This document shows, piece by piece, positions 15,992 through 52,753 of a stretch of DNA of 64,000 bases. The stretch is from an uncultured Desulfobulbaceae bacterium (GTDB lineage: Bacteria > Desulfobacterota > Desulfobulbia > Desulfobulbales > Desulfocapsaceae), in NCBI GenBank assembly GCA_947311315.1, contig CAMZKN010000065.1, positions 2,648-66,647 of the forward strand, read 5' to 3'. The notes under the pieces were generated by a model, which was not told where the DNA came from, searched no databases, and saw only the letters and a list, made by a program, of their open reading frames with translations. Position 1 is the first letter of the stretch, and every line of letters begins with the position of its first letter. A program made the translations under genes and the position numbers.

Positions 15992-16006
15992 GTACTACAG
16001 GAGACG

Positions 16007-18632: not shown

Positions 18633-18685
18633 ATCATCCTCCAAAATCTTAATCAGAATTTTACCAAATTCGGTATGTTTATGGT

Positions 18686-19503: not shown

Positions 19504-19516
19504 ATAACATCGTTAC
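19504..19516. promoter_or_regulatory. Candidate TetR operator upstream of TetR-1/mce/mutase
   Basis: ATAACATCGTTAC (reverse complement GTAACGATGTTAT); 12 of 13 nt identical to the site at 5309. Confidence 0.65.
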
Positions 19517-19680
19517 GCATATGTTGTAATGCATTGCGTATTTCTTTTCAAGTAAAAAGCGGTTTCTGCATGTTTTATGGAGTATTTAACTGGCGAAAAG
19601 AACATTGTCTGGAAAATGCAGGTGAGGGTTGGAAGAGCAGTAAACAATGATTCATTTGGGCTCTTCCAACCTTCTGGATA

Positions 19681-20844: not shown

Positions 20845-20859
20845 GGTAAGTGTCTCCTT

Positions 20860-21258: not shown

Positions 21259-21276
21259 ATCTTTCCTCTGTCGTAA

Positions 21277-21687: not shown

Positions 21688-21702
21688 GTTGTCTCCATGG
21701 TG

Positions 21703-23250
21703 TTAAAGTGGAAGGTTTCCATGTTTTTTGGCGGGTCGTTTTTCGCGTTTTCCCTTGAGCATCATAAAGGCATCAATGATTCTTTGGCGACTCGTCTGCG
21801 GCTCGATAACGTCGTCGACAAAACCACGTTCGGCAGCTTTGTAAGGTGTTGCAAATTCAGCAGCGTATTCGTTGATAATTTTTTGTTTGGTAGCTGCTTT
21901 ATCTTCGGCTTTGGCGATATCATTTTTGAAAATAATGTTAACCGCTCCCTCTGATCCCATGACGGCAACTTCTGCAGTCGGCCAGGCAAAAACCATGTCG
22001 GCACCTAAAGATTTTGAGCACATGGCAACATAGGCACCACCGTATGCCTTGCGGGTGATAAGGGTTACTTTCGGGACAGTGGCTTCACTGTAAGCATAAA
22101 GGATTTTTGCCCCGTGCCTGATGATGCCATTATATTCCTGGTTTGTGCCAGGGAGAAATCCAGGAACATCGACAAGGGTGAGAAGTGGGATGTTGAAAGC
22201 GTCACAGGTTCTGATAAATCGTGCAGCTTTGTCCCCGGCATTCATATCAAGACACCCGGCCATAACATTTGGTTGATTGGCGACTATACCAACTGATTTA
22301 CTGTTTATTCGTGCATAGCCGGTAATAAGATTTGTGGCAAAATATGGCAGATATTGCAGGAAATAACCATCGTCGACCAGGGGAACAATGACGTCGAGGA
22401 TGTCGTATGGTTTGTTCGGGTTGTCTGGGATTATGTCGTTGAGTTCAGAAATCTGTCTGTTTGGGTCGTCAGTACAGGGGGTGTCCGGTGCAGTTTCCAT
22501 GCTGTTTGAAGGTAGAAACTGCAATAATTCTCTAATGCTGGCCAGACAGTGCAGTTCTGATTCTGCAAGAAAATGAACATTGCCACTGACGCTGTTGTGG
22601 GTCATTGCTCCACCAAGATCTTCAGCGGAGACGATTTCACCGGTTACTGTTTTAATGACCTGTGGGCCGGTGATGAACATCTGTGATGTCTTGTCGACCA
22701 TTATAATGAAATCAGTTAAAGCAGGGGAATAAACAGCTCCGCCGGCGCAAGGACCCATAATTGCAGAGATCTGTGGGATAACGCCGGAATAGATAGAATT
22801 TCTGAAAAAGATATCTCCAAAACCGTTTAGAGCGTCGACGGCCTCTTGGATTCTTGCACCTCCAGAGTCGTTGAGGCCAACCATTGGGGCCCCGATTTTG
22901 GCAGCGGCATCCATTGCTTTGACGATTTTTCTGGAGTGCATTTCACCCAACGCTCCACCGGTAATGGTGAAATCCTGAGAATATGCGTAAACGATTCGCC
23001 CCTCAATCCGCCCGTAACCTGTGACCACAGATTCACCTTCGACATCAAGGTTTTCCAGGCCAAATCGGTTGCACCTGTTTTTAATAAAGGCATCTGTCTC
23101 GATGAATGTTCCTTCGTCAAAAAGATGGTGAAGGCGTTCCCTTGCCGTCATTTTCCCTTTTGCGTGTTGTTTTTTTATTCTGTCCTGGCCACCTCCAAGA
23201 GCAAGTTTTTCCTTTTTCTTAATTAAAAGATCTTTTTTATCCAAAGACAT
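21703..23250 (-). CDS. mmdA: Methylmalonyl-CoA decarboxylase alpha (carboxyltransferase) subunit
   Basis: [42 protein letters not shown]. Start ATG 23250 after AAGGAG. Followed by the delta, gamma and beta subunits. Confidence 0.9.
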   Translation of the reverse strand: MSLDKKDLLIKKKEKLALGGGQDRIKKQHAKGKMTARERLHHLFDEGTFIETDAFIKNRCNRFGLENLDVEGESVVTGYGRIEGRIVYAYSQDFTITGGALGEMHSRKIVKAMDAAAKIGAPMVGLNDSGGARIQEAVDALNGFGDIFFRNSIYSGVIPQISAIMGPCAGGAVYSPALTDFIIMVDKTSQMFITGPQVIKTVTGEIVSAEDLGGAMTHNSVSGNVHFLAESELHCLASIRELLQFLPSNSMETAPDTPCTDDPNRQISELNDIIPDNPNKPYDILDVIVPLVDDGYFLQYLPYFATNLITGYARINSKSVGIVANQPNVMAGCLDMNAGDKAARFIRTCDAFNIPLLTLVDVPGFLPGTNQEYNGIIRHGAKILYAYSEATVPKVTLITRKAYGGAYVAMCSKSLGADMVFAWPTAEVAVMGSEGAVNIIFKNDIAKAEDKAATKQKIINEYAAEFATPYKAAERGFVDDVIEPQTSRQRIIDAFMMLKGKREKRPAKKHGNLPL

Positions 23251-23332
23251 GTATTCTGCTCCTTGATAAATGTTTATCAGTATTACGGCGGACATATTCA
23301 GCCGCGCTTTTTAAATTACCGATCGAGGTATT

Positions 23333-35033: not shown

Positions 35034-35483
35034 ATGGTTTCGTACGATACTCATGTGAAGGAACGTTGTTTCTCTTTCTTGCAGGAAGATGAGGCTCAAG
35101 TTCTTTTGAGTTTGATGGATGAACGGATTTGTAAAGCTGGTACGCATCTCTTTGAGAAAGGCGATCCTGCCAACTGTTTGTATCTAGTAGTCAGTGGGAA
35201 AATTGCGGTTCAAAAACGAACCGGTTTCGGAGAGAGGACCCAGGTGGTTGCGCTATTGGGGGCCGGTGCTCCTGTTGGTGAAGGTGGATTGCTCGAAAAA
35301 AAAGAAAGAGGATCGACTCTGCTGGTGGTTCAGGATTCTAAACTTCTTGTGTTTAAAAGATCTGCTTTTTTGCAGTTGTGTTGCGAGAATAACAGCCTTG
35401 CGGTCAAGATCCTGCAATGGTTGCTCGAAAGAGTTGTGGTACGCTTGCAAAAAAACTCTGAACGGCTGGCACATATATTATAG
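35034..35483 (+). CDS. Stand-alone cyclic nucleotide-binding domain protein
   Basis: LFEKGDPANCLYLVVSGKI, GAPVGEGGLL..ERGSTL; no HTH. Confidence 0.85.
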   Translation: MVSYDTHVKERCFSFLQEDEAQVLLSLMDERICKAGTHLFEKGDPANCLYLVVSGKIAVQKRTGFGERTQVVALLGAGAPVGEGGLLEKKERGSTLLVVQDSKLLVFKRSAFLQLCCENNSLAVKILQWLLERVVVRLQKNSERLAHIL

Positions 35484-35721
35484 TTACCTTATTTGTATAG
35501 AATGGATGAATTTGAGGGCGAAAATTTCTGGTTTTCGTGATCTCAAAAAATAGTTTTTTATGTCAAATGTGTTTTTTCCTAGCCAATCTGATATAAATTG
35601 ATTATTTTTGTTTCTTTTTGTTTTTTGACTTTAGACCATGTTGGTTAAATTTTGCGGGGATAAGGCGTTTTATCCCGTTGAAATAGTTTGCAGTTAATTT
35701 GTACTTAATTTGGAGGATACA

Positions 35722-35910
35722 ATGGCATTACCTAAAAGAAGACACTCTCATTCACGTACCCGAAAGAGAAGATCACATGACAGTTTGACAGCTCCGGGAC
35801 TTTCAGTTTGTCAGGAATGTGGAGAGCCTAAAGAACCCCATCGCCTCTGTGGCGGTTGTGGAAAATATAAAGGCAGGTCTGTTTACGTTTTTGATACTGA
35901 GATTGATTAA
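35722..35910 (+). CDS. rpmF: 50S ribosomal protein L32 (Zn-binding form)
   Basis: MALPKRRHSHSRTRKRRSH, CQECG..HRLCGGCGKYKGR. Confidence 0.97.
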   Translation: MALPKRRHSHSRTRKRRSHDSLTAPGLSVCQECGEPKEPHRLCGGCGKYKGRSVYVFDTEID

Positions 35911-36050
35911 TACCTCCTGGAAGTTCCTTTCTTGTCTGTTAAGGAGGAATTTAATAACAGTATGTATTTCATACGATAATTGATGAATTCGGGCAAATTT
36001 ACCTGAATTGAGTTCGTATTTCTCCCCGATTACGGGGTTAGGAGATTGTT

Positions 36051-37070
36051 GTGCAAATAGCCCTGGATGCTATGGCAGGGGACCATGGCCCTGAGGAACT
36101 GATTGCCGGGGCACTGCTTGCTGTCGAAGAGACAGGTGTGAATATCAGCCTGGTCGGAGATGAAAAGATCATTGCTGCGCATCTGGAAAAACTGGATCCC
36201 GGTTCGAAAATGTCGTCCCGGGTGTCGGTCGTTCATTCGTCACAGGTTATCGAGATGAACGAACATCCTGTCGATGCCATTCGGAAGAAAAAAGATTCTT
36301 CTGTAATGGTAGCTTTTGAGCTTGTTCGGCAGGGACAGGCGGGAGCGGCCGTAAGTGCCGGCAATTCCGGTGCCACTATGGCCGCAGGAGTGCGCAAACT
36401 TGGAAGGTTGAAAGGAATTTCACGTCCCGGGATTGCTTCGTTGTTTCCAACTCTGAAAAAACCTGTTGTTCTGATGGATATTGGTGCAAACGTAGATTGT
36501 CGTGCCCAGCACCTTTTTCAGTTTGCAGTGATGGCCTCGGCGTTTTCCGGTATCCTTGATAATAAATATCCACGGGTGGGTTTGTTGACCATCGGCGAAG
36601 AGATTGGCAAAGGTAATAGCCTTATCAAGGAAACGTATCCGCTGCTGAAAGACAGTTCCATGAACTTTATTGGCAATGTCGAAGGTCGGGATATTTATCA
36701 GGGAAATGTTGATGTAATAATATGTGATGGTTTTGTTGGGAATGTTTGCCTGAAGGTCAGTGAAGGTTTGGCTGAGGCGGCAATGATGATGCTAAAAGAT
36801 GAAATAGTTAAATCATTTATGGCAAAGATCGGTTATTTGCTTGCCCGGCAGGCTTTTAAATCGTTTAAAAAGCGGGTCGATTACGCTGAATACGGCGGTG
36901 CACCTCTACTTGGGATTAATGGTACAGGCATCATCTGCCATGGCAAGTCGAGTTCTCATGCAATTAAAAATGCAATTATTGAAGCGGCGAAGATGGTTAA
37001 AAGGAATTTAAACCAGAATATTCTTGAGAGTCTTTCTGCTGAAAAAAAAGTTGAACATATGGAGACATGA
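36051..37070 (+). CDS. plsX: Phosphate acyltransferase
   Basis: IALDAMAGDHGP, SAGNSGA, DIGANVD, GNVEGRD, CDGFVGN, CHGKS. Confidence 0.97.
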   Translation: MQIALDAMAGDHGPEELIAGALLAVEETGVNISLVGDEKIIAAHLEKLDPGSKMSSRVSVVHSSQVIEMNEHPVDAIRKKKDSSVMVAFELVRQGQAGAAVSAGNSGATMAAGVRKLGRLKGISRPGIASLFPTLKKPVVLMDIGANVDCRAQHLFQFAVMASAFSGILDNKYPRVGLLTIGEEIGKGNSLIKETYPLLKDSSMNFIGNVEGRDIYQGNVDVIICDGFVGNVCLKVSEGLAEAAMMMLKDEIVKSFMAKIGYLLARQAFKSFKKRVDYAEYGGAPLLGINGTGIICHGKSSSHAIKNAIIEAAKMVKRNLNQNILESLSAEKKVEHMET

Positions 37071-38044
37071 TGGGAACTGTTGTGTTAGGGACGGGGTCTT
37101 GTTTACCCGGTAAAATCCTCACCAATGTAGATCTGGAATCCATAGTTGAAACAAATGATGAATGGATACGGAGCAGAACCGGAATAGAAGAACGTAGAAT
37201 CGCCGGGAAAGGGGAATATACCTACAAAATTGCAGCGGATGCAGCAAAAAAAGCACTAGCTGCTGCGGGTGTTTCTGCCAGCGAAATCGGGCTTGTTGTA
37301 CTCGGAACGATTAGTTCACATATGCTCATGCCTTCGAGTGCGTGTTTTGTGCAGAATGAAATAGGCGCAGTAAACGCATTTTCTTATGACCTCAATGCAG
37401 CATGCTCTGGTTTTTTGTATGGCCTTGATCTTGCTGATAAATATATTAAAGATGATCACTCAATGAAAGTGCTGGTTATAGGCGCTGAAACGTTGTCTGG
37501 TCGTTTGGACTGGAAAGATAGAAATACCTGTATTCTTTTTGCAGATGGTGCAGGAGCTGCCGTTTGTGGATATTCGGAATCCGATCGAGGTGTAATTGGC
37601 TCTAAGTTACTCTCTGATGGTTCTCTCTGGAAACTTCTGCATATGCATGCCCCAAAGAGTTACAATCCCGATCTGCTCGTTGAAGAAAATGACGGAACCT
37701 TCATTCAGATGGAGGGAAAAGAGGTCTTTAAGCATGCAGTCAGAGCAATGGAAGACTCTGTACGGGGGCTCTTAAAAAAAGAAAATGTTGATTTGGATTC
37801 AATAGATATTTTTATTCCGCATCAGGCCAATATTCGTATCCTTAATAATTTAATTGATCGCTTGAAAGTACCACGGAGTAAAGTATTTATAAACGTTTCT
37901 AAATATGGTAATACATCCGCTGCGTCAATTCCGATAGCACTCGATGAAGCAAACAGCAGTGGTATGATTTCAAAAGGCGATACAGTGTTATTTTGTTCCT
38001 TTGGTGGGGGATTTACCTGGGGCGCAACACTGATTAAGTGGTAA
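37067..38044 (+). CDS. fabH: 3-oxoacyl-ACP synthase III
   Basis: DLNAACSGF, FIPHQANIRI, YGNTSAAS, FGGGFTWG. Confidence 0.96.
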   Translation: MMGTVVLGTGSCLPGKILTNVDLESIVETNDEWIRSRTGIEERRIAGKGEYTYKIAADAAKKALAAAGVSASEIGLVVLGTISSHMLMPSSACFVQNEIGAVNAFSYDLNAACSGFLYGLDLADKYIKDDHSMKVLVIGAETLSGRLDWKDRNTCILFADGAGAAVCGYSESDRGVIGSKLLSDGSLWKLLHMHAPKSYNPDLLVEENDGTFIQMEGKEVFKHAVRAMEDSVRGLLKKENVDLDSIDIFIPHQANIRILNNLIDRLKVPRSKVFINVSKYGNTSAASIPIALDEANSSGMISKGDTVLFCSFGGGFTWGATLIKW

Positions 38045-38059
38045 ACAGGAGAAATACGT

Positions 38060-39208
38060 ATGGATTATTTTTTATCTGAAGAACAACAGATGATCGTTGA
38101 CATCGCAAAGCAGATTACAGACGAAAGAATTATACCCAGTCGTGCTGAACTTGATGAAAAAAACGAGTTCCCGCGGCAGATTTTAAACGAGATGGCCCAG
38201 GCGGATCTTTTTGGTGTACCAATTCCAGAAGAATACGGTGGGTTTGGAGGCGGCTGCCTCGATATAGTTTTAACGCTTGAGCAGTTTGGGCGTGGGTGTC
38301 TTGGCGTAGGCACTGCCTTTGCCGCTAATTTTCTTGGCGTTTACCCGATTATCATTGCCGGTTCTGATGAGATGAAGCAGAAGTATCTCCCTGATGTAGC
38401 ATCCGGAAAACGATTTGGAGCCTTTGGCTTGACTGAAGCGAATGCCGGATCGGATGCTTCAGGTATACAAACAACTGCAGTTCTAGATGGAGATGAGTGG
38501 GTTCTCAATGGTACAAAGCAATGGATAACCAACGGTGGTGAAGCGCAAATTTATTCCATCGTGGCTATTACTGATCGCAGTCGTGGGCCAAGGGGAGCGT
38601 CTCTTTTTGTTGTTGAAGATGGCGACCCCGGTTTTTCTTATGGTGTAAAAGAGAAAAAGATGGGTATTCGTGCTTCATCGACCACTGAGTTGATTTTTAA
38701 AGATTGCCGAATTCCCAAAGATCGGCTTATCGGTAGGAAAGGTACCGGCTTTATAACAGTTATGAAAACGCTTGATCTCTCACGTCCCGGCATTGCAGCA
38801 CTTGGTGTTGGCGTAGCTCAGGGGGCTCTGGATGAAGCGGTCAGGTATGCAAAACAGAGGAACCAGTTTGGCAAACCGATTATTGCCTTTCAGGCAGTAC
38901 AACATATGCTGGCAGATATGGCCATGGGTATTGAATCGGCCAGAGCGCTCGTATACAGTGCCGCAAAACATATTCAGGAGCATCCTAAAAAAATGACAAA
39001 AGCATCGGCAATGTGCAAAGCATATGCCACCGATGTTGCCATGAAGGTTACAACTGATGCAGTACAGGTTATGGGTGGTTACGGATATATGTGTGAATAT
39101 CCGGTGGAAAAAATGATGAGAGATGCCAAAATCCTGCAGATCTATGAAGGAACAAACCAGATACAGCGTAATGTTATAGGTCAGGAACTGAACAAAGAAT
39201 ACTTATAA
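38060..39208 (+). CDS. Acyl-CoA dehydrogenase (Bcd/short-chain type)
   Basis: FGLTEANAGSDA, LNGTKQWITNG, KKMGIRASST, RNQFGKPI, IYEGTNQIQR (catalytic Glu). Confidence 0.95.
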   Translation: MDYFLSEEQQMIVDIAKQITDERIIPSRAELDEKNEFPRQILNEMAQADLFGVPIPEEYGGFGGGCLDIVLTLEQFGRGCLGVGTAFAANFLGVYPIIIAGSDEMKQKYLPDVASGKRFGAFGLTEANAGSDASGIQTTAVLDGDEWVLNGTKQWITNGGEAQIYSIVAITDRSRGPRGASLFVVEDGDPGFSYGVKEKKMGIRASSTTELIFKDCRIPKDRLIGRKGTGFITVMKTLDLSRPGIAALGVGVAQGALDEAVRYAKQRNQFGKPIIAFQAVQHMLADMAMGIESARALVYSAAKHIQEHPKKMTKASAMCKAYATDVAMKVTTDAVQVMGGYGYMCEYPVEKMMRDAKILQIYEGTNQIQRNVIGQELNKEYL

Positions 39209-39242
39209 TGGCCGACTTGGCTAACCAGATATAGGTTGTTGA

Positions 39243-40022
39243 ATGAAAATAATAGTTTGTGTAAAACAAGTTCCTGACGCTAAAGATGTTCGTCTTGACC
39301 CCGAAACAAATACCCTCGCACGGGAAGGCGTGGAATCGATAATGAATCCTTATGATCAGCATGCTCTTGAAGAAGCTGTTCGACTTAAGGAGGAACTGGG
39401 TGGTGAGGTTGTTGTTTTGACCATGGGACCACCACAGGCTGAGGATGTTCTCAGGCAGGCTATCAGTTGTGGTGCAGATAGAGCAGTGCTTGTTTCGGAC
39501 AGAGCATTTGCCGGAGCGGATACCTGGGCTACCGCATATACTCTTGAGCATGCGGTTAAAACGATTGGTGATTTTGACTTGATCATGTGTGGTAAGCAGG
39601 CAATCGATGGTGATACTGCTCAGGTTGGCCCTGGGCTTGCTACCCGATTGGATGTACCTTATCTGACCTGTATTCAAAAAATACGCGAAGCAAAAGAGAG
39701 TGGGTTGGTTGTTGAGCGCATGATGGATGACGGGTTTGATGTTCTTGGTGTAAATCTTCCTGCATTGCTTACAGTTGTGAAAAATATAAATGAGCCGAGG
39801 GTGCCTTCATTAAAAGGAAAAATGAAAGCCAAGAAAGCTGATATTCTTACGTTAAGCAGTGAAGATATTGGTGCAGATGCCGCATGTATTGGCCTTCCCG
39901 GTTCTCCTACGAAGGTTGTAGATGTGTTTCCGCCTCCCCCGCGTGGTGAGCGTGCGGTGCTGCAGGGAACCCTTGACGAGCAGATAGATCAGCTAGTTGA
40001 TAAATTAATTCCATATTTGTAA
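39243..40022 (+). CDS. etfB: Electron transfer flavoprotein beta subunit
   Basis: IVCVKQVPD, MNPYDQHALE, GADTWATA, CGKQAIDGDTAQVGPG. Confidence 0.96.
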   Translation: MKIIVCVKQVPDAKDVRLDPETNTLAREGVESIMNPYDQHALEEAVRLKEELGGEVVVLTMGPPQAEDVLRQAISCGADRAVLVSDRAFAGADTWATAYTLEHAVKTIGDFDLIMCGKQAIDGDTAQVGPGLATRLDVPYLTCIQKIREAKESGLVVERMMDDGFDVLGVNLPALLTVVKNINEPRVPSLKGKMKAKKADILTLSSEDIGADAACIGLPGSPTKVVDVFPPPPRGERAVLQGTLDEQIDQLVDKLIPYL

Positions 40023-40042
40023 CAAAGCGGAGAATTCTTGAT

Positions 40043-41230
40043 ATGTTGAAGGTGAGTGAAGAACTTTGCATTGGATGTGGAATTTGCGAAGAGAGTTGCC
40101 CTTTTGGTGCAATTCAGGTTGAAGATGGCCTCGCAATTGTCGGGGAGAGTTGTACGCTGTGTGGTGCATGTGTAGAGAGTTGTGAAGTTGAAGCTCTCAG
40201 TCTCGATATTACCGAGCGAAAAGTCCAGGATGATATTTCAAGCTGGAATGGTGTCTGGGTCTTTTGTGAATACAGACTTGGTGAACTTGCTTCTGTTTCA
40301 CTTGAGTTGCTTGGAATTGGTCGGGAACTTGCCGATAAACGTGGTGTACAACTTAGTGCTGTGCTACTTGGTCATGAAACCGGGGATACTGCAAAAACAC
40401 TTATAGGTCATGGTGCCGACAGGGTTTTTGTTGCAGATCATGAAGAACTCAAGGGATTCAGGGATGATTGCTATGGCGCTGTAGTAACTGATCTTATTAC
40501 CACCCATAAACCTGAGATTGTTCTGGCCGGTGCTACTGCAATTGGCAGGTCTTTTATTCCAGGGGTGGCGACATCTCTTAATGCAGGACTTACAGCAGAT
40601 TGCACTAAACTTGAAATTCGCGAAGAAGACGGGGCCTTGCTGCAAACACGTCCTGCTTTTGGTGGAAATATAATGGCCACTATTGTCTGTGAGTCTTCGC
40701 GACCGCAAATGGCAACGGTCAGGCCCAAGGTGATGAAAGAGCTTGAATTTGACCCCGATCGCACAGGTGAGACCGTGGCTGTTGAATTGACACAAAAACA
40801 ATTACAAAGTCGCGTTACCCTTATAGATTCAGTAGTAGCTGGAGCTGCACAGGTAAATATACAGGAAGCCGATATTCTTGTATCCGGTGGCAGAGGACTT
40901 GAGAGCGAAAAAGGTTTTGTTCTGATAGAAGAGCTTGCCGGGGCCCTGGGTGCAAAAGTTTCTGCATCGAGAGCTGTTGTTGACGCTGGTTGGATACCAT
41001 ATCCGCACCAGGTAGGGCAGACAGGAAAAACAGTTGCCCCTCAGCTCTACATAGCCTGCGGTATTTCCGGGGCTGTCCAGCATGTGGCTGGTATGCAGTC
41101 TGCGGAAACCATTGTTGCGATAAATAGAGATGAGAATGCAACAATCTTTGATGTTGCCGATTATGGTATTGTTGGTAATTTGTTTGAGGTAATACCAAAA
41201 TTGATTAAAAAGATCGAGGAGCGACGGTAA
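40043..41230 (+). CDS. etfA: Electron transfer flavoprotein alpha subunit with N-terminal 2x[4Fe-4S] ferredoxin domain
   Basis: CIGCGICEESC and CTLCGACVESC; GLTADCT, RPAFGG, QVGQTGKTV, GISGAVQH. Confidence 0.95.
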   Translation: MLKVSEELCIGCGICEESCPFGAIQVEDGLAIVGESCTLCGACVESCEVEALSLDITERKVQDDISSWNGVWVFCEYRLGELASVSLELLGIGRELADKRGVQLSAVLLGHETGDTAKTLIGHGADRVFVADHEELKGFRDDCYGAVVTDLITTHKPEIVLAGATAIGRSFIPGVATSLNAGLTADCTKLEIREEDGALLQTRPAFGGNIMATIVCESSRPQMATVRPKVMKELEFDPDRTGETVAVELTQKQLQSRVTLIDSVVAGAAQVNIQEADILVSGGRGLESEKGFVLIEELAGALGAKVSASRAVVDAGWIPYPHQVGQTGKTVAPQLYIACGISGAVQHVAGMQSAETIVAINRDENATIFDVADYGIVGNLFEVIPKLIKKIEERR

Positions 41231-41233
41231 AAT

Positions 41234-41977
41234 ATGAGTCTTGAAGGAAAGGTTGCTGTTGTCACTGGCGGGAGTCGTGGGATAGGAAGAGGAATTTGTT
41301 TAAGACTCGCGTCCATGGGCGCACTGGTGTATATCAATTATGTCAGTCGGTCTGAAGCAGCTGAAGAAACCCGAAAACTCATTTTAGATGCTGGCGGAAA
41401 AGCAGAGATTCTCTGTTTTGACGTGGCTGATATATCTGCTGTGCAGAGCAGCATGAAAAAAATAGTTGCTGAGGCCGGATCAATCCATATTTTGATAAAT
41501 AATGCCGGAATAACAAGGGATGGTCTTATGGCAAGAATGAAAGAGTTAGATTGGGATGCAGTGCTCGACACTAATCTCAAAGGTGCTTTTGCATGCGCTA
41601 AGGCTGTTTCACGTGTGATGATGAAAAATAAATGGGGCAGGATTGTTAATATTTCTTCTGTTTCGGGATATGCCGGGAATGCTGGTCAGGTAAATTATTC
41701 TGCAGCTAAAGCAGGGCTGAACGGCCTTACCAAGGCAATGGCTCGTGAGTATGCATCACGTAATATTACGGTAAATTGTGTTGCTCCCGGATATATTGAA
41801 ACAGAAATGACCGAACTTCTTGCAGAAGAGGTTCAGCAGCAGATAAAAGAAGAAATTCCGCTTGCAGTTTTTGGACAGGTTGAAGATATAGCCAGTGCAG
41901 TGGCCTATTTTGTTTCAGAAAATGGGCGATATGTTACAGGACAGACTCTTCATGTTAATGGCGGTATGTACATGTAA
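41234..41977 (+). CDS. fabG: 3-oxoacyl-ACP reductase
   Basis: TGGSRGIG, NNAGITRD, NYSAAKAG, VAPGYIET. Confidence 0.96.
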   Translation: MSLEGKVAVVTGGSRGIGRGICLRLASMGALVYINYVSRSEAAEETRKLILDAGGKAEILCFDVADISAVQSSMKKIVAEAGSIHILINNAGITRDGLMARMKELDWDAVLDTNLKGAFACAKAVSRVMMKNKWGRIVNISSVSGYAGNAGQVNYSAAKAGLNGLTKAMAREYASRNITVNCVAPGYIETEMTELLAEEVQQQIKEEIPLAVFGQVEDIASAVAYFVSENGRYVTGQTLHVNGGMYM

Positions 41978-42045
41978 TAGAAGTATTTTTAGTGCGGCGC
42001 TGAGAACATTTTTGCGTTTAATTTTAAAGTTAAGGGAGACCTCTA

Positions 42046-42276
42046 ATGGCAATCGAACAGGAAATGATCGATATAATTGTTGAGCAGTTAAGTGTTGAAA
42101 AAGAAAAAGTTGTTGCAAATGCGTCTTTTGTTGATGATCTCGGGGCAGATTCACTTGATCTCGTTGAGTTGATTATGGCGATGGAAGAAGGTTTTGACAT
42201 TGAAATTCCTGATGAAGATGCAGAAGGGATCAGTACTGTTCAGGATGCTATTGATTACGTAAAAAAACAGAACTAA
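42046..42276 (+). CDS. acpP: Acyl carrier protein
   Basis: [21 protein letters not shown]. Confidence 0.98.
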
Positions 42277-42378
42277 CTGTTGGCAGGTTAGCCCCCCGGT
42301 TTATATAAACATACTGGGGGGAGTGTACCTTTAATTCTTGAATTAAAGGTACGTCGACAGCAACTTTAATACCCCCCG

Positions 42379-42396
42379 TTAGTGCCTTACTCCATA
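42379..42396 (-). repeat. Partial copy (right end) of the dispersed repeat
   Basis: TTAGTGCCTTACTCCATA, the reverse complement of TATGGAGTAAGGCACTAA in copy A. Confidence 0.7.
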
Positions 42397-42502
42397 GAAC
42401 TTGTGAAAGACTGTTCCATATCGGCGACAAGGCACCTATACCCGGTTTAATTACTGGTATTGGCTTGTGTGAAAGACAAATAGTGAAAAAGGAGCAGCTA
42501 TT

Positions 42503-43744
42503 GTGAAACGAAGGGTAGTGATTACCGGTGTAGGCCTTGTGACGCCAGTTGGAATAGGCGTGGAAACGAGTTGGAAGAATATTTGTTCCGGTGTGAGTGG
42601 AATTGATCATATAACTCGCTTTGACACCAGTAATTTTATGGTAAAAATTGCTGCTGAAATAAAGGGTTTTTCGTCAGATGACCATTTTGAAAAGAAGGCT
42701 GCCAAACGCCTCGATTTGTTTGTTCAATATGGAATGGTTGCTGCTCGTATGGCTATGGAAGATAGTGGCCTGGTAGTAAACGATGAGAATTGTGAAAGGA
42801 TTGGCGTAATAACCGGCTGTGGTATGGGTGGTTTACCGACCATTGAAAAATATCACAAGGTCTCTCTTGAGAGGGGGCCTAAAAAAGTAACGCCATTTTT
42901 TATTCCAATGGTTATTCCTAATATGCCTTCGGGACATATTTCAATGGATCATAACACCAAAGGGCCAAATCTTACCTTGACCACAGCCTGTTCTGCCGGT
43001 ACACATGCCATTGGAGAAGCGTACAGGCATATTCAATATGGTATGTGTGATGCTGTTCTCAGTGGTGGTACGGAAGCTGTGATTTGTTCTTTGGGGGTTG
43101 CAGGATTTTCTGCCATGAAGGCACTTTCCACTCGTAATGATGATCCACAGGCAGCCTCAAGGCCTTTTGATAAAGATCGCGATGGGTTTATTATGTCCGA
43201 AGGTTCGGGCATACTCATTGTGGAAGAACTTGAGCATGCGCTGGCAAGAGGCGCTAAAATTTACGCTGAGGTTGTTGGCTACGGACTAAGCAGTGATGCC
43301 TATCATATTGCAGCTCCACCTGAAAATGGTGAGGGAGCGGCAAGAGCCATGAAAATGGCCCTTCAGGATGCAGAATTTGCACCTGAAGACATTGATTATA
43401 TTAATGCACATGGAACGTCAACTCCGCTCAATGATAAGTGTGAAACTCAGGCTATCAAAAGCGTTTTTGGTGAGCATGCGAAGAAACTTGCAATAAGTTC
43501 CACGAAATCGATGACAGGTCACATGCTTGGAGCAGCAGGTGGCATTGAAGGGGTGTTTACAGCGTTGGCTATCAAAGATCAGATTGCGCCGCCAACTGTT
43601 AATCTGGCAGAACCCAGCCCTGAATGCGATCTGGATTATGTACCAAATTTTTCAAGAGAGATGAAAATAGATGCTGCAATTTCCAACTCTTTTGGTTTTG
43701 GGGGAACGAACGCAGTCGTAGCTATGAAAAAGTATTCCGACTGA
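42503..43744 (+). CDS. fabF: 3-oxoacyl-ACP synthase II
   Basis: RRVVITGVG, TTACSAG, NAHGTST, STKSMTGHMLGAAG, NSFGFGG. Confidence 0.97.
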   Translation: MKRRVVITGVGLVTPVGIGVETSWKNICSGVSGIDHITRFDTSNFMVKIAAEIKGFSSDDHFEKKAAKRLDLFVQYGMVAARMAMEDSGLVVNDENCERIGVITGCGMGGLPTIEKYHKVSLERGPKKVTPFFIPMVIPNMPSGHISMDHNTKGPNLTLTTACSAGTHAIGEAYRHIQYGMCDAVLSGGTEAVICSLGVAGFSAMKALSTRNDDPQAASRPFDKDRDGFIMSEGSGILIVEELEHALARGAKIYAEVVGYGLSSDAYHIAAPPENGEGAARAMKMALQDAEFAPEDIDYINAHGTSTPLNDKCETQAIKSVFGEHAKKLAISSTKSMTGHMLGAAGGIEGVFTALAIKDQIAPPTVNLAEPSPECDLDYVPNFSREMKIDAAISNSFGFGGTNAVVAMKKYSD

Positions 43745-43763
43745 TTATGCGTGGGGGAAGATT

Positions 43764-44192
43764 GTGAAAATTGTCATTGGGTCTGACCATGGTGGCTTTG
43801 AATTAAAAGAGACAATCAAAGATAGATTGTTGCAACGAGATTATAGTATTATTGACGTCGGGTGTTCTTCTGTTGATTCTGTAGATTATCCTGATTTTTC
43901 TGACCAGGTAGTGTCACATATTGTCAATGGTACCTGTAATAAGGGAATTCTTATTTGTGGAACTGGTATTGGCATGAGCATTGCTGCAAATAGGGACAGG
44001 AGGATAAGGGCCGCAAATGTGCACAATCTTTTCACTGCCCGGATGAGCCGTGAACATAATAATGCCAATATTCTCTGTCTGGGAGCACGTGTTATAGAAA
44101 CTGACCTTGCTCTTGAAATTGTTTCGGTCTGGCTGGATACAGAATTTACCGGTGGCAGGCACCAAATAAGAATTGATAAATTTAGTGAGTGA
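43764..44192 (+). CDS. rpiB: Ribose 5-phosphate isomerase B
   Basis: GSDHGGFELK, DYPD, ICGTGIGMSIAAN, HNNANILCLGAR, GGRHQ.R. Confidence 0.96.
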   Translation: MKIVIGSDHGGFELKETIKDRLLQRDYSIIDVGCSSVDSVDYPDFSDQVVSHIVNGTCNKGILICGTGIGMSIAANRDRRIRAANVHNLFTARMSREHNNANILCLGARVIETDLALEIVSVWLDTEFTGGRHQIRIDKFSE

Positions 44193-44214
44193 TTTATCAG
44201 AAGTCAATTGAATA

Positions 44215-44256
44215 GCAATAAAGCCGATTTTGCGTAAGCAGAATCGGCTTTATTGC
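44215..44256. terminator. Long hairpin after rpiB (probable terminator)
   Basis: GCAATAAAGCCGATT / AATCGGCTTTATTGC, perfect 15-bp stem. Confidence 0.7.
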
Positions 44257-44344
44257 GTTTCAGTTGTATTACTTTTTGTGTACTATTAAATGGCATCAAT
44301 AAAGAAACTTGAAATAACATGTATAATTTTTCTGGAGGTGACAA

Positions 44345-44815
44345 ATGAAATGTCCGTATTGCGAACATCTCGATAATAAGGTGATCGATTCTCGCCTGAA
44401 CAAAGATGCGACAATAACCAGGAGAAGAAGAGAATGTATGGCATGTACTCAGCGTTTTACAACCTATGAACGCCTTGAAGTTATGCTTCCAGTACTTGAG
44501 AAAAAAGATGGAAGGAGAGAATCCTGGGATAGGCGTAAGCTGATATCAGGTTTGGAGAAAGCGTGTGAGAAGAGAGATGTCAGTCGAGATAAAATTGATG
44601 AGTTTGCAGATGAAATCGAACATAAACTTCAAGATTATGGTGCGAAAGAGATCCCATCTGGTGTCGTTGGAGAATGGGTTATGGAAGGGTTGCCCTTACT
44701 TGATGAGGTAGCATATGTTCGCTTTGCATCCGTGTACAGGCAGTTTAAAGATGTGAATGAGTTTATGCATGAATTGAAAACACTTTTGGATTCCAGGGGC
44801 AACGATGACGGTTAA
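44345..44815 (+). CDS. nrdR: Transcriptional repressor NrdR
   Basis: MKCPYC..KVIDSR..RRRRECMAC..RFTTYER, DEVAYVRFASVYRQF. Confidence 0.98.
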   Translation: MKCPYCEHLDNKVIDSRLNKDATITRRRRECMACTQRFTTYERLEVMLPVLEKKDGRRESWDRRKLISGLEKACEKRDVSRDKIDEFADEIEHKLQDYGAKEIPSGVVGEWVMEGLPLLDEVAYVRFASVYRQFKDVNEFMHELKTLLDSRGNDDG

Positions 44816-45911
44816 ACCTGATGAACATTTTATGCGCGTGGCTCTTAAGGAGGCAAAAAAAGGTATCGGGCGTACATCTCCGAATCCAGCAGTCGGTGCG
44901 GTTATTGTCAGTGATGGCAATATTATTTCCAAAGGGTACCACAAAAAAGCCGGCATGCCTCATGCAGAGATAAATGCAATTAATGGCGCTAAAAAGTCGC
45001 TTTTCGGTACGACTATCTACGTCACACTAGAACCTTGTAATCATACGGGCAAAACACCTCCCTGCACCCAGGCTATTATCGAAAATGGAATTTCACGGGT
45101 TGTTGTCGGTATGAAAGATCCAAATCCTCTTGTTTCAGGCAGTGGCATAGACTGTCTCAGACAAAAAGGTATTATTGTCGACAGCGGCATTCTAGAAAAA
45201 AAATGTAGAGATATTAATAGGCCATTCATTAAATTTATTACCCATGGTCTTCCCTGGGTAATTATGAAAGCGGGAGTTAGTCTGGATGGCCGGTTGAACT
45301 ATCAGAAAGGGCAAAGTGGTTGGATTACCGGTGAGCAGTCGGTGCGAGAAGTGCATAAGCTTCGGGATCAAGTGGATGCTATTCTTGTTGGTCGAGGAAC
45401 TGTTGAAATTGACAACCCTTCTCTGACTACCAGGCTTGCAGGGAAAAAGACAGAAGACCCTGTCAGAATAGTTGTTGATAGTGAACTTTCTCTACCTCTT
45501 TCGTCCAAGGTTCTTCATCTTGATTCAAAGGCTCCGACATGGATTTTTTGTCGAGATGGCCTTTCAAGTGAAAGAAAGGCTCAATATGAAAAACCTGGTG
45601 TAAGGATTTTTCAGGTTCCCGGTATGGGGGATGGTCTCGATTTGAAAAAAATCATGACTATCCTTGGACGCGAAAATATCTGTTCTGTTTTAGTTGAGGG
45701 TGGTGGGAAACTGCATAGCAGTTTTTTGCGTGAGAGAATATACGACTATGCTCATATTTTCCATGCACCAGTCCTGGCAGGGGATAGGGGGGTATCGTTG
45801 CTTGACGGCTATAGTGTCACAGACCGCTCCCGCTCTCCCGGGTTGTCGGATGTGCGATATAAAAGGTTGGGCGACGACATGATGGTCTCGGGGCAGCTGG
45901 TCTATTCTTGA
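44805..45911 (+). CDS. ribD: Bifunctional riboflavin deaminase/reductase
   Basis: PNPAVGAV, HAEINA, TLEPCNHTGKTPPC, SLDG, DNPSLT, VEGGG. Confidence 0.96.
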   Translation: MTVKPDEHFMRVALKEAKKGIGRTSPNPAVGAVIVSDGNIISKGYHKKAGMPHAEINAINGAKKSLFGTTIYVTLEPCNHTGKTPPCTQAIIENGISRVVVGMKDPNPLVSGSGIDCLRQKGIIVDSGILEKKCRDINRPFIKFITHGLPWVIMKAGVSLDGRLNYQKGQSGWITGEQSVREVHKLRDQVDAILVGRGTVEIDNPSLTTRLAGKKTEDPVRIVVDSELSLPLSSKVLHLDSKAPTWIFCRDGLSSERKAQYEKPGVRIFQVPGMGDGLDLKKIMTILGRENICSVLVEGGGKLHSSFLRERIYDYAHIFHAPVLAGDRGVSLLDGYSVTDRSRSPGLSDVRYKRLGDDMMVSGQLVYS

Positions 45912-46861
45912 TGTGATTTGGTGTCTAGCGTACGTTTAAGAATTGCCCATTTTTCTTTGCATTCAGACATGTTTTTGAATGTGATGGATAGTGTGACTTG
46001 ATCTCTTTCGAAAGATTTGGAGTGGGAGATTGAGCAGTGAGCAGGAAGGTGTAGAGATTTAATGAGTTCGTTGAACTCCTCTTCTGCTTGAGTCGATGAA
46101 GGCGTGTGTCGATTTCCCAACAAAACACCAAGGTGCTGGGTTTTTTGTGGAATATTCATATTCTTATGGTTGAGTATTTGTTGTATCTCTTTTTCGTTGA
46201 GATACTCTTCGATGGTACTTTCCTGCCGAAAAGCCAGGTCTCTCAATAGAATAAAAATTTTCCTTTGTTTGCCATCGCCAAGCGCGAGTTGTTTAAAGAG
46301 AAGAACCAGGGCAAGTCGGTCTGATGGGTACCGGAGTTTTAGTAATTCTGCAACCATTTTTTCTCTTAGTTCACCCGCGTGGATAGCATGTATTATTTCT
46401 TTATCCTGCTCCAAGATTTCCAGTGCATTGTGGTACGTTGACTTTCTTTGTTTGAGTTTCAGTCTGGGCAGAAATTTTTCGATAATGGTGTCGGTATCCA
46501 AATATTGGTTGGCAACTTTTAGAAACTGTGCTTTTTCTGCAAGAGTAAGTTGTGTAGCATTCGGTTGATCGGTAAGAAGGAGATCGAGTATAAAAACGTG
46601 TGAAGAATTCTGTGCGATATTCAAGCACACCGGAGTTAAATTATGATCGCATTCTTTGAGAAAAAGTAATCGTTTAAAGCCATGGACGATTGAAAATCGG
46701 TTCCTTGTTGTCTGCATAACTATGGGAGGCTGGATAACACCTGTTTGAGAAAATGATTCCTTCAATGTTTCTGGAATTTGGTGAAGCTCCCAGGGGTGAA
46801 GGTTCCAGTCGTTACTGAAATCAATAGACTTTAAGGGAATTTGGTCGTAGGTAAAAGACAT
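45902..46861 (-). CDS. ParB/Srx N-terminal domain protein
   Basis: IPLKSID, LKESFSQTGVIQPPIV, IVHGFKRL resemble the ParB-N motif; no parA in the window. Confidence 0.65.
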   Translation of the reverse strand: MSFTYDQIPLKSIDFSNDWNLHPWELHQIPETLKESFSQTGVIQPPIVMQTTRNRFSIVHGFKRLLFLKECDHNLTPVCLNIAQNSSHVFILDLLLTDQPNATQLTLAEKAQFLKVANQYLDTDTIIEKFLPRLKLKQRKSTYHNALEILEQDKEIIHAIHAGELREKMVAELLKLRYPSDRLALVLLFKQLALGDGKQRKIFILLRDLAFRQESTIEEYLNEKEIQQILNHKNMNIPQKTQHLGVLLGNRHTPSSTQAEEEFNELIKSLHLPAHCSISHSKSFERDQVTLSITFKNMSECKEKWAILKRTLDTKSHQE

Positions 46862-52147: not shown

Positions 52148-52753
52148 TTGAGTTTTATCAACTTAAAAGACAAGGTAGTTCAGGTTAAAATAGTATATTA
52201 TGGGCCTGGGCGATGTGGGAAGACCACAAATCTCGAGTATATCAATCGGACATACAGAAAACAGATTGTTTCGGAGATGGTTAGTCTTAAAACCCATGGA
52301 GATCGAACACTGTTTTTTGATTTTTTGCCTTTCGATATGGGTCAAATTAAAGGTTATGATATTAAGATCCAACTCTATACCGTACCCGGTCAAGTAAAAT
52401 ATAATGCTACGAGAAAACTCGTATTAAGAGGTGTTGACGGGATTGTTTTTGTTGCCGATGCCATGGAAAAGCAAAGGGAAAAAAATATAAGATCATTAAA
52501 TCAGCTTCATGAAAATCTTCAATCGTATAAAGAATCTATTTTCAAGATACCTTTAGTGATGCAGTACAATAAAGTTGATTTGAAGGAACACGGTATTCCT
52601 ATTCTTCCGATTTCGGTTCTGCAAAAAGATTTGAACAGCCGTCTGAAAGTTCCATATTACGAAGCAAGTGCAATTACTGGATATAATGTTGCGGCAACAT
52701 TGAAGAAAATTATTTCTTCGTCGGTGATTTCAATTCAGAAAAAATTACTCTAG
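52148..52753 (+). CDS. mglA: MglA-like small Ras-superfamily GTPase
   Basis: KIVYYGPGRCGKTTNL, RTLFFDFLP, YTVPGQV.YNATRKLVLRGVDG, NKVD. Confidence 0.95.
   Translation: MSFINLKDKVVQVKIVYYGPGRCGKTTNLEYINRTYRKQIVSEMVSLKTHGDRTLFFDFLPFDMGQIKGYDIKIQLYTVPGQVKYNATRKLVLRGVDGIVFVADAMEKQREKNIRSLNQLHENLQSYKESIFKIPLVMQYNKVDLKEHGIPILPISVLQKDLNSRLKVPYYEASAITGYNVAATLKKIISSSVISIQKKLL

Follow-up and report, generated by a model that had tools for sequence, protein, structure and literature searches.

Gene content and transcription of the fab locus

The genes rpmF-plsX-fabH-ACAD-etfB-etfA-fabG-acpP-fabF-rpiB all lie on the forward (+) strand of the window, the whole 64-kb stretch of DNA that was analysed. The order from rpmF to fabF had been proposed in a first-pass annotation and held when the coordinates were re-derived. 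The first gene of this conserved unit is rpmF, encoding ribosomal protein L32 (35710-35910; TIGR01031, 81.6 bits against a cut-off of 22.6), which is also found 5´ of plsX or the ACAD gene in nearly all related loci. It is followed by plsX, encoding phosphate acyltransferase (36051-37070; TIGR00182, 369.2 bits, cut-off 243.4), and by fabH, encoding beta-ketoacyl-ACP synthase III (37067-38044; NF006829, 415.5 bits, cut-off 249), the first 4 bp of which overlap the end of plsX. The next three genes, here called the module, encode an acyl-CoA dehydrogenase (ACAD), which is a Bcd-like flavoprotein of 382 aa and a candidate enoyl-thioester reductase subunit (38060-39208), EtfB, the small ETF subunit of 259 aa and of the bifurcating type (39243-40022), and EtfA, the large ETF subunit of 395 aa (40043-41230), whose N-terminal 2x[4Fe-4S] ferredoxin domain is encoded at about 40043-40210. 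Downstream are fabG (3-oxoacyl-ACP reductase, 41234-41977; TIGR01830, 320.8 bits, cut-off 297.75), acpP (acyl carrier protein, 42046-42276; NF002149, 113.8 bits, cut-off 106), fabF (beta-ketoacyl-ACP synthase II, 42503-43744; TIGR03150, 660.9 bits, cut-off 493.75) and rpiB (ribose-5-phosphate isomerase B, 43764-44192; TIGR01120, 178.6 bits, cut-off 138.65), the last also located 3´ of fabF in most related loci. With PlsX, FabH, FabG, AcpP and FabF all above the curated NCBIfam cut-offs, five of the six genes of the canonical type II fatty-acid synthesis (FAS) operon, plsX-fabH-fabD-fabG-acpP-fabF, are present. The locus differs from that operon in the absence of fabD from the window and in the insertion of three additional genes.

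The spacing reported earlier was also reproduced, with gaps of 15 bp (fabH to ACAD), 34 bp (ACAD to etfB), 20 bp (etfB to etfA) and 3 bp (etfA to fabG); across 55 loci, the median etfA-fabG gap is 8 nt. A terminator-like hairpin with a 19-bp stem directly follows rpiB (44215-44256, + strand) and likely marks the 3´ end of the transcription unit, as it is the only strong intergenic site of this kind within 35400-44400. The 226-nt spacer between acpP and fabF (42277-42502) contains two hairpin-forming palindromes, read from the sequence, and has no match in Rfam. The tiny gaps, the lack of an intergenic terminator, the conserved etfA-fabG junction and the strong hairpin only past rpiB make it almost certain that ACAD-etfB-etfA shares a transcript with the FAS genes, as had been suggested.

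The ACAD and its bifurcating-type ETF

The ACAD contains all three Pfam domains of its family (PF02771, PF02770 and PF00441), and its closest solved structure is C. difficile Bcd (5OL2_C, 408.9 bits, 52% identity). The catalytic Glu363 is retained within IYEGT (the YEGT motif), and E198 and E346 correspond to the ETF-docking acidic residues E198 and D345 of C. difficile Bcd. In the C. difficile complex, these two residues and EtfA R243 form the salt bridges of the domain II-Bcd interface, while EtfA R136 contacts N5 of the beta-FAD (PMC5691135). EtfA R310 and R203 of the present locus align with R243 and R136, respectively. For EtfB (PF01012), the NPYD and GKQAIDGDTAQVGP motifs listed in the first-pass annotation were both found, and the five best PDB matches, CarD (249 bits), LctB (231), A. 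fermentans (226), C. difficile (226) and T. maritima (222), are all bifurcating or confurcating ETFs, with non-bifurcating ETFs at about 100-109 bits. EtfA contains CIGCGICEESCP and CTLCGACVESCE in addition to two CxxCxxCxxxC motifs, and the 2x[4Fe-4S] domain noted previously corresponds to Fer4 at residues 3-55, alongside the ETF and ETF_alpha domains. The protein aligns over its full length, including this domain, with CarE (6FAH_A, 433.9 bits). Judged by these matches and by the interface and FAD-contacting residues, the ETF is of the electron-bifurcating type and the three proteins constitute a Bcd/CarCDE-type complex, which upholds the earlier assignment.

The same three components are found in Bcd/EtfAB of C. 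difficile and Acidaminococcus fermentans (EC 1.3.1.109; 5OL2, 4KPU/4L1F), and with the YEGT glutamate, the R136 equivalent and the interface residues all kept, the expected chemistry would likewise involve NADH, oxidised ferredoxin and an enoyl thioester. Unlike these systems, EtfA here has an extra ferredoxin domain, and the module is surrounded by a fab operon instead of thiolase, hbd, crt or other butyrate-pathway genes. CarD and CarE of the Acetobacterium woodii caffeyl-CoA reductase CarCDE (6FAH) are the best PDB matches to the ETF, but the ACAD matches Bcd better (409 bits, compared to 321 bits for CarC), and the neighbours are fab genes, with no carA/carB-like CoA transferase or ligase genes and no phenylpropanoid context. 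Among NCBIfam models, the Clostridium propionicum acryloyl-CoA reductase AcrABC gives the top match for the ACAD (AcrC, 435 bits) and EtfA (367.5 bits); for EtfB it comes second, with 236.3 bits compared to 307.4 for NF040731. Identity with AcrABC was rejected, as all three scores are below the cut-offs of 640, 600 and 475, respectively; the ACAD in fact falls below every NCBIfam equivalog cut-off. For propionate, the organism encodes the methylmalonyl-CoA route instead.

Within the ACAD family, helix E of all 96 members aligns without gaps to human MCAD, whereas C. difficile Bcd has one additional residue. In the M. elsdenii BCD structure, this insertion is reported to go with a short-chain pocket, and structural work on BCD, MCAD and VLCAD is reported to relate such residues to pocket depth. 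At the positions of human MCAD Gln95 and Glu99, the family has small residues, mostly Gly/Ala/Ser at the former and Ala at the latter. The missing insertion together with these small residues argues for a predicted acyl pocket deeper than C4. As for the carrier of the acyl chain, AnaB (4IRN), PigA/RedW and MbtN illustrate that the ACAD fold can take phosphopantetheine-tethered substrates. These proteins are secondary-metabolism dehydrogenases without a dedicated bifurcating ETF, and they are much more distant from the ACAD (203.5, 161.7 and 71.8 bits, respectively). The ACAD is far closer to its CoA-dependent counterparts, at 409 bits, than to those that use carrier proteins, at about 160-200 bits. 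The scores against the NCBIfam models for carrier-protein ACADs were 71.8 versus a cut-off of 700 for MbtN, 261 versus 650 for RedW and 243 versus 500 for PigA.

Distribution of the module and its relation to fabD and fabK

Sampling of 41 independent Desulfobulbales assemblies, one of them from the isolate Desulforhopalus vacuolatus DSM 9700, showed the same gene order in every case, and Desulfobulbales loci recovered independently via FabF all hold the module in the same place. With the ACAD as anchor, 53 of 80 loci had fab genes no more than 4.5 kb away. Fab operons of further Desulfobacterota, of Nitrospirota and of Marguli-/Saganbacteria likewise contain the whole module or just the ACAD, so that the synteny check proposed in the first-pass annotation was strongly positive and extends well past Desulfobacterota. 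Several arrangements were observed, such as rpmF-ACAD-etfBA-fabG in Desulfobacca, fabF-rnc-ACAD-etfBA, and the etf-less variants plsX-ACAD-fabD-fabG and fabH-ACAD-fabG, and the fab linkage is kept even with unrelated genes inserted between ACAD and etf. Given this recurrence in dozens of independent assemblies, the arrangement, as read from genome comparison, is far beyond chance. Full-text literature searches found no paper describing an operon link between ACAD-ETF and fab genes. In Clostridia, where FabK is used, orthologues with 61-64% identity make up ACAD-etfB-etfA operons of their own, and stand-alone operons are present in PVC phyla as well; in one Nitrospirota subclade, the ACAD gene adjoins hpt-queD-tldD and not fab genes. 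The ACAD tree largely tracks organismal lineages. In locus L001, conservation of the ACAD (92%) exceeds that of the enzymes and ETF subunits (76-83%), and within the operon it is surpassed by the 76-aa AcpP alone (95%). Only two positions, T85 and L359, set the fab-linked ACADs apart from other members, and neither an ACP-specific signature nor a basic ACP-docking patch was found among the clade-specific residues. In Acidobacteriota, an unrelated etfBA of the non-Fd type and an ETF-QO-like gene directly follow fabF, showing that ETF genes can come to lie beside fab genes for other reasons.

The earlier observation that the window lacks both fabD and an enoyl-ACP reductase was borne out across the 64 kb. 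Searches of the window by tblastn with FabD (two seeds), a genuine FabK, the NMO/FabK-like protein and an unvalidated FabV query gave no match; an unvalidated E. coli FabI query gave one weak match (25% over 96 aa, E 1e-4), located inside fabG. Pfam scans of the other large ORFs of the window likewise detected no fabD and no known enoyl-ACP reductase, and the loci of ~20 kb that were searched contained no FabI or FabK apart from the FabK-like NMO described below. A canonical enoyl-ACP reductase may well be encoded elsewhere in these genomes. The earlier view that the module sits where fabD normally does, by contrast, had to be corrected. Nitrospirota and Margulisiibacteriota keep both in the order fabH-ACAD-etfB-etfA-fabD-fabG, so the module is not a fabD substitute; some Desulfobulbaceae have a fabD-like gene about 2.5 kb upstream of rpmF.

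In three clostridial loci (L129, L141 and L151), the order is fabH-fabK-fabD-fabG, with fabK in the same slot as the module. The gene in L129 encodes a true FabK (503.6 bits, cut-off 453.1). In a Margulisiibacteriota locus (L061), the gene for the FabK-like NMO shares the operon with the module; its product scores under the cut-off for FabK and contains a motif of four Cys that is missing from L129, the one FabK compared. FabK (enoyl-ACP reductase II) resembles the predicted complex in being a flavoprotein that carries out NADH-dependent enoyl thioester reduction. The folds, however, are unrelated (an NMO/TIM barrel with FMN versus an ACAD with FAD plus ETF), and FabK is a single subunit without ferredoxin coupling. 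The ACAD and ETF match neither the SDR family (FabI/FabL/FabV) nor the NMO family (FabK) in Pfam and NCBIfam; a module acting as an enoyl-ACP reductase would thus represent a new class.

Candidate roles in fatty-acid synthesis

Our best reading, held tentatively and at less than even confidence, is that the module is an enoyl-ACP reductase of type II FAS, either the sole one or an additional one. NADH would reduce the beta-FAD of EtfB, from which one electron would pass uphill through the iron-sulfur domain of EtfA to ferredoxin and the second, by way of the swinging alpha-FAD, to the flavin of the ACAD. Once two such rounds are complete, this flavin would convert a trans-2-enoyl thioester to its saturated acyl counterpart; in fatty-acid elongation, the substrate would be the trans-2-enoyl-ACP intermediate. 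The module would then occupy the position in the operon taken by fabK in Firmicutes, and the large free-energy drop of enoyl reduction would partly be recovered as reduced ferredoxin. The location of the module inside the fab operon here, in a relative of sulfate reducers, and in many other anaerobes raises the possibility that lipid synthesis involves an enoyl reductase, so far undescribed, that saves energy. Consistent with such a role are the fab linkage conserved across several anaerobic phyla and many rearrangements, the slot shared with clostridial fabK, the housekeeping behaviour suggested by the ACAD conservation and the lineage-following tree, the predicted acyl pocket deeper than C4, and, by analogy, the existence of ACADs acting on carrier proteins, such as the prolyl-ACP dehydrogenase 4IRN and PigA 6AF6. 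The stand-alone clostridial orthologues, the hpt-queD-tldD subclade and the FabK-like NMO in the same Margulisiibacteriota operon point the other way, as do the closeness to a genuine butyryl-CoA dehydrogenase and the restriction of clade-specific residues to T85 and L359, which leaves no sequence mark of a switch from CoA to ACP.

Several of these observations would fit a Bcd/EtfAB-like bifurcating reductase that acts on short- or medium-chain enoyl-CoA and is merely co-expressed with FAS, for example to provide FabH with saturated acyl-CoA primers such as butyryl- or valeryl-CoA, or to serve as a site at which NADH is constitutively coupled to ferredoxin. The 52% identity to Bcd, the butyryl-CoA or acyl-CoA dehydrogenase labels in public database records, the stand-alone operons in Clostridia and PVC phyla and the near lack of clade-specific residues in the fab-linked group are all in keeping with action on CoA esters. 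The ACAD gene also lies directly 3´ of fabH, which encodes the primer-using enzyme, in most loci, and the Marguli-/Saganbacteria copy has been interpreted as a CoA-level enzyme (PMC6349859). We nevertheless consider this somewhat unlikely. Neither in the window nor in the loci inspected by ORF map or homology search was a thiolase, 3-hydroxyacyl-CoA dehydrogenase or crotonase gene identified beside the module, leaving no apparent source of enoyl-CoA, and the helix-E insertion that marks canonical, C4-specific Bcd is missing from the ACAD. Supplying primers would bring little benefit, yet four phyla retain the linkage through many rearrangements, and it persists in loci without fabH (L043, L049, L059 and L070).

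It is improbable, in our view, that the complex runs in the oxidative direction, with the ACAD dehydrogenating saturated acyl-ACP or acyl-CoA and passing electrons to the ETF, whether to introduce a double bond for anaerobic unsaturated fatty acid synthesis, which would make it functionally analogous to H. pylori FabX, or in lipid turnover. Dehydrogenation is the canonical ACAD reaction, and H. pylori FabX sets a precedent as a type II FAS flavoenzyme with an Fe-S cluster acting on acyl-ACP (PMC8626469), although FabX is an NMO-family FMN dehydrogenase/isomerase with no ETF link. No fabA, fabB, fabM or fabN was detected among the large ORFs of the window, a weak indication since the scan covered large ORFs only. 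With an ETF of the NADH/ferredoxin bifurcating type, the reverse reaction would cost reduced ferredoxin; no isomerase signature was identified, and the module is retained where a FabX/FabK-like NMO shares the operon (L061). A direct functional link might also be lacking, if a housekeeping ACAD-ETF operon, serving for example beta-oxidation or amino-acid catabolism, had been captured once by the highly expressed ribosomal-protein/fab operon and inherited vertically. The lineage-following ACAD tree means that the synteny could partly stem from shared ancestry and not from repeated selection, and the Acidobacteriota case documents an unrelated ETF beside fabF. The lack of a functional link is decidedly improbable, given that the adjacency holds at phylum-level distances, in at least six gene orders and despite foreign-gene insertions, with an etfA-fabG junction maintained at 3-10 nt; neutral synteny is rarely spared over such divergence.

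Returning to the enoyl-ACP reductase reading, it is possible, though we put this more cautiously still, that ACAD-EtfB-EtfA(Fd) adds a fifth class, unrelated in structure, to the bacterial enoyl-ACP reductases and operates by flavin-based electron bifurcation. Two NADH would be consumed per enoyl-ACP and two ferredoxins reduced. Low-potential reducing power would then be a product of membrane-lipid synthesis in these low-energy organisms, drawn from energy that is otherwise dissipated and that we estimate from standard potentials at about 60 kJ per elongation cycle.

Gene order and conservation of the module

The ten genes between 35.7 and 44.3 kb of the window are all on the + strand, arranged head to tail in the order rpmF-plsX-fabH-ACAD-etfB-etfA-fabG-acpP-fabF-rpiB. 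The module comprises the ACAD gene (38060-39208, +), whose product has three ACAD Pfam domains, etfB (39243-40022, +), with an ETF domain, and etfA (40043-41230, +), with a Fer4 pair at the N terminus ahead of the ETF and ETF_alpha domains. The PlsX, FabH, FabG, AcpP, FabF and RpiB proteins all exceed their curated NCBIfam cut-offs. The intergenic gaps from fabH through fabG measured 15, 34, 20 and 3 bp, as tiny as the first-pass annotation had claimed, and a consensus scan of the intergenic spaces within the cluster detected no convincing terminator. Directly 3´ of rpiB is a terminator-like hairpin (44215-44256, +; 19-bp stem, T-rich tail), which probably marks the 3´ end of an rpmF-to-rpiB transcription unit. 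Among the RNA runs searched, none covered this region. Homology searches and the Pfam inventory revealed no fabD, FabI or FabK homologue in the 64-kb window, consistent with the reported absence, and there was also no match to an unvalidated FabV query. The gene order, family assignments, gaps and absences therefore confirm the initial observation.

Conservation was examined with an ACAD-anchored search (one genome per species), in which the proteins of the window were mapped onto the 80 nearest loci. All 23 Desulfobulbales loci had the order rpmF-plsX-fabH-ACAD-etfB-etfA-fabG-acpP-fabF(-rpiB-nrdR-ribD), which was also found in Thermodesulfatator-like and other Desulfobacterota. Other arrangements were rpmF-ACAD-etfBA-fabG-acpP-fabF in Desulfobacca, a lone ACAD gene placed after plsX or fabH and before fabD or fabG in several Thermodesulfobacteriota, and fabF-rnc-ACAD-etfBA in two unclassified genomes. 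Across the set, fab genes were within 4.5 kb in 53 of the 80 loci, with both fab and etf genes present in 40. In some loci, unrelated genes were found between ACAD and etfB or etfA (L022:10039-11182, L040:9165-11713, L049:10017-10457, L050:1329-1982 and L051:9258-10602), with the fab cluster staying together. Judged by eye from translations, these inserts include PIN-domain-like, RNase H-like and hypothetical proteins.

A second, independent search anchored on FabF gave 80 nearest loci, 20 of them Desulfobulbales, including the isolate Desulforhopalus vacuolatus DSM 9700. The full module was at the same position in 15 of the 20, and two (L084 and L095) had degraded matches; the remaining three (L085, L089 and L090) are on contigs that end early and agree as far as they extend. 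The fab operon was free of the module in all of the other 60 loci, about 30 of which had the canonical fabH-fabD-fabG order. The etfA-fabG junction had a median length of 8 nt (n=55 loci). Synteny across Desulfobacterota, which had been put forward as a check, thus proved positive, with no exceptions among the 41 independent Desulfobulbales assemblies of the pooled searches, and extended to Nitrospirota and Margulisiibacteriota. No identical ACAD protein is on record, and the closest relative in genome collections has an ACAD protein 92% identical to that of the window. DNA near-identical to the window was detected solely in hydrothermal-vent and epibiont metagenomes, and the relatives place the organism in Desulfobulbales. 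The phenomenon is much more general than one genome, and in several anaerobic phyla the module is a conserved part of the type II FAS operon, with which it is predicted to be co-transcribed.

The first-pass annotation had the module standing in place of fabD. This did not hold, as in every operon that keeps fabD the module follows fabH and precedes fabD. Nitrospirota (Thermodesulfovibrionia) and one Margulisiibacteriota genome have fabH-ACAD-etfB-etfA-fabD-fabG-acpP-fabF, in which the fabD product is a genuine FabD (342.7 bits, cut-off 260.9), and this order rules out replacement of fabD by the module. In six Desulfobulbaceae loci (L091, L092, L093, L095, L098 and L154), a fabD-like gene was found about 2.5 kb upstream of rpmF, with mlaA/mlaC-like genes and a cNMP-binding gene downstream; the L098 copy scored 253.7 bits against the cut-off of 260.9. 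This fabD-like gene shows where fabD went in part of Desulfobulbales. Upstream of rpmF, the window itself has what look from the sequence like MlaFED/MlaC-like genes, without fabD. The slot occupied by the module is shared with fabK in three Clostridia (L129, L141 and L151), where the order is plsX-fabH-fabK-fabD-fabG-acpP-fabF. At 503.6 bits, the L129 gene exceeds the cut-off of the FabK equivalog (453.1). We regard this shared slot as the most suggestive single point for the reductase hypothesis.

Relationship to bifurcating complexes and descent of the ACAD

The best solved relative of the ACAD was the butyryl-CoA dehydrogenase (Bcd) of the C. difficile EtfAB/Bcd complex (5OL2_C; 408.9 bits, 52% identity), followed by actinobacterial ACADs and the A. 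fermentans Bcd. CarC, of the Acetobacterium woodii caffeyl-CoA reductase CarCDE, scored 321 bits, below Bcd, and carrier-protein-dependent ACADs scored about 160-200 bits. The catalytic Glu is kept (E363 within IYEGT), and E198 and E346 align with Bcd E198 and D345, which in the C. difficile complex form salt bridges to domain II of the ETF (PMC5691135). EtfA matched CarE over its full length, including the 2x[4Fe-4S] domain (433.9 bits), and CarD was the closest structural match of EtfB. The next matches of both subunits were other structurally characterised bifurcating or confurcating ETFs, with non-bifurcating ETFs at less than half those scores. In EtfA, R203 corresponds to the Arg contacting N5 of the bifurcating beta-FAD and R310 to the Arg at the domain II-Bcd interface. 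Together, the structure matches and the conserved catalytic, docking and beta-FAD residues bear out the assignment first proposed and identify the module, as predicted from its proteins, as a Bcd/CarCDE-type complex. Very probably, such a complex can link the oxidation of NADH to the reduction of both an enoyl thioester and ferredoxin.

No NCBIfam equivalog claims ACAD, EtfB or EtfA. The acryloyl-CoA reductase (AcrABC) models were the top NCBIfam models for ACAD and EtfA and second for EtfB, after the generic EtfB model; AcrABC identity was ruled out by scores far under the curated cut-offs for all three subunits. Public records name the ACAD only as "acyl-CoA" or "butyryl-CoA dehydrogenase". 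The Marguli-/Saganbacteria copy appears in the literature only as a putative Bcd/EtfAB, which was considered non-bifurcating from its domain annotation (PMC6349859). That judgement conflicts with the conserved residues and the similarities of the ETF in the window; for the Margulisiibacteriota locus L061, the comparison covered the EtfA ferredoxin domain and 49-57% identity. A full-text literature search found no paper tying ACAD or ETF to enoyl-ACP reduction or fab operons, and the terms acyl-CoA dehydrogenase, electron transfer and ferredoxin are all absent from a 2022 review of bacterial enoyl reductases.

Human MCAD, C. difficile Bcd and 96 ACAD family members were placed in a neighbour-joining tree, which largely tracked organismal lineages. 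Fab-linked genes make up the bulk of a large clade from Desulfobacterota, Nitrospirota and Marguli-/Saganbacteria. Branching outside it are Clostridia, Actinomycetota, PVC phyla and Cloacimonadota, with the ACAD gene alone or as part of a stand-alone ACAD-etfB-etfA(Fd) operon that lacks butyrate genes. For one Nitrospirota subclade (L027-L029, L032, L035, L038, L039, L041 and L048), the orthologous ACAD is in a conserved non-fab cluster, next to genes that by eye from translations look like hpt, queD and tldD/pmbA, and etf genes are usually not nearby. This subclade is nested within the fab-linked Nitrospirota, which makes the non-fab placement look like a secondary relocation. Between L001, a relative's locus, and the window, the ACAD is 92% identical, compared with 76-83% for the operon's other enzymes and ETF subunits; the short AcpP alone is higher, at 95%. 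The lineage-following tree, the nesting and the conservation of the ACAD together point to a housekeeping function that is vertically inherited and strongly constrained.

Candidate substrates and roles of the module

Substrate clues were sought by alignment to human MCAD (reference 100% identical to PDB 1EGE; Q95, E99 and E376 at their published numbers). All 96 family members align gap-free to MCAD in helix E, C. difficile Bcd being one residue longer, and they have small residues at the Gln95/Glu99 positions, mostly Gly, Ala or Ser, then Ala. In BCD structure papers the helix-E insertion reportedly makes the pocket shallow, and in those on VLCAD glycines at these positions are said to deepen it. 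If these effects hold, the gap-free helix and the small residues suggest that the family is not restricted to C4. The pocket features were ruled out as a mark of fab-linked ACADs, as stand-alone clostridial orthologues share them and they are a trait of the whole family. Only two positions, T85 and L359 (MCAD T96 and Y372), distinguish fab-linked from other ACADs; neither is basic, and ACP-specific residues were rejected as evidence either way. We found no sequence signature of a CoA-to-ACP switch between the two groups, so the substrate class, whichever it is, is probably the same across the whole family.

With FabK, FabI, FabV (unvalidated sequence) and NMO queries, tblastn of the 160 loci detected only the true FabK of the three Clostridia and one FabK-like gene, located in L061. 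This NMO-family gene (L061:13197-14171) shares an operon with an ACAD-ETF module, where it separates acpP from fabF, and was the only reductase-like gene near any module in the loci examined. Its score against the FabK model was 179.7 bits, with the cut-off at 453.1. The protein has a C259-x2-C262-x3-C266-x4-C271 motif reminiscent of the [4Fe-4S] subdomain in H. pylori FabX, a dehydrogenase/isomerase; L129, the one true FabK used for comparison, lacks this motif. The L061 gene is therefore not counted as a canonical reductase. Its close homologues are abundant; among the 120 matches listed, most were without a name and the named ones were all Marguli-/Saganbacteria (WOR-1). Desulfovibrio vulgaris presumably has a fab operon without the module. 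For this species, the essential DVU2064 has been put forward as a candidate for the enoyl-ACP reductase that it depends on (PMC10102598). So some Desulfobacterota, at least, would use conventional enzymes.

Enoyl-ACP reduction, a major target of antibacterials, is the step that drives each round of elongation forward. To our knowledge, there are four known families of enoyl-ACP reductase, all of which simply burn the large redox drop. We tentatively prefer the possibility that the module is an enoyl-ACP reductase that co-reduces ferredoxin, as its place in the fab operon and the fabK slot would suggest. It might instead be a Bcd-like enzyme working at the CoA level and merely co-expressed with FAS. 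The higher scores against Bcd than against carrier-protein-dependent ACADs are in keeping with this, the fab linkage points the other way, and we consider it somewhat unlikely; even if the enzyme uses CoA esters, the strongly conserved cross-phylum linkage suggests that acyl-CoA and acyl-ACP metabolism are connected in a way not yet described. We consider an oxidative, FabX-like role improbable, and a linkage without function marginally more so.

If the module is indeed a bifurcating enoyl-ACP reductase, it would represent a new enzyme class in an essential pathway and a new physiological role for electron bifurcation, anabolic instead of fermentative. This could explain cheaper membrane synthesis in energy-starved anaerobes and would bear on the interpretation of lipid hydrogen-isotope signals of sulfate reducers. 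"Butyryl-CoA dehydrogenase/Etf" genes in metagenome-based metabolic reconstructions, now taken as evidence for butyrate metabolism or beta-oxidation, would have to be read differently.

Additional features of the operon and the window

The acpP-fabF spacer (42277-42502) is unusually long, at 226 nt, and contains two strong palindromes, CCCCCCGG...CTGGGGGG and GTACCTTTAATTC-TTG-GAATTAAAGGTAC. The operon spacers, this one included, gave no Rfam match to known RNA elements. The spacer could be an attenuator or processing site setting the acpP:fabF expression ratio.

We also noted that in Acidobacteriota (Vicinamibacterales and others; L105, L108, L109, L114, L117, L121, L122, L128, L131, L132, L134, L136, L157 and L159) the fab operon is rpmF-plsX-fabD-fabG-acpP-fabF, without fabH, and that etfB-etfA, with 33-41% identity to those of the window, come immediately after it. 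In L105, the one locus inspected, a gene for a 554-aa ETF-QO/FixC-like oxidoreductase comes after etfB-etfA. The low identity and the linked ETF-QO/FixC-like gene, with no ACAD, rule out the same system, and this is apparently a second, independent ETF-fab adjacency.

Elsewhere in the window, a dense and complete methylmalonyl-CoA/propionate gene set is located at 5379-23295. It encodes acetyl-CoA synthetase, succinyl-CoA ligase, two carboxyltransferases, a biotin carrier, Na+-decarboxylase beta and gamma subunits, methylmalonyl-CoA mutase with MeaB, and two TetR regulators, and fits Desulfobulbus-type propionate metabolism. Neither a 319-aa ORF (45902-46861, -) nor a 994-aa ORF (52762-55746, +) had a Pfam match at E<=1e-5; the latter is preceded by a small Ras/Arf-like GTPase gene (52148-52753).
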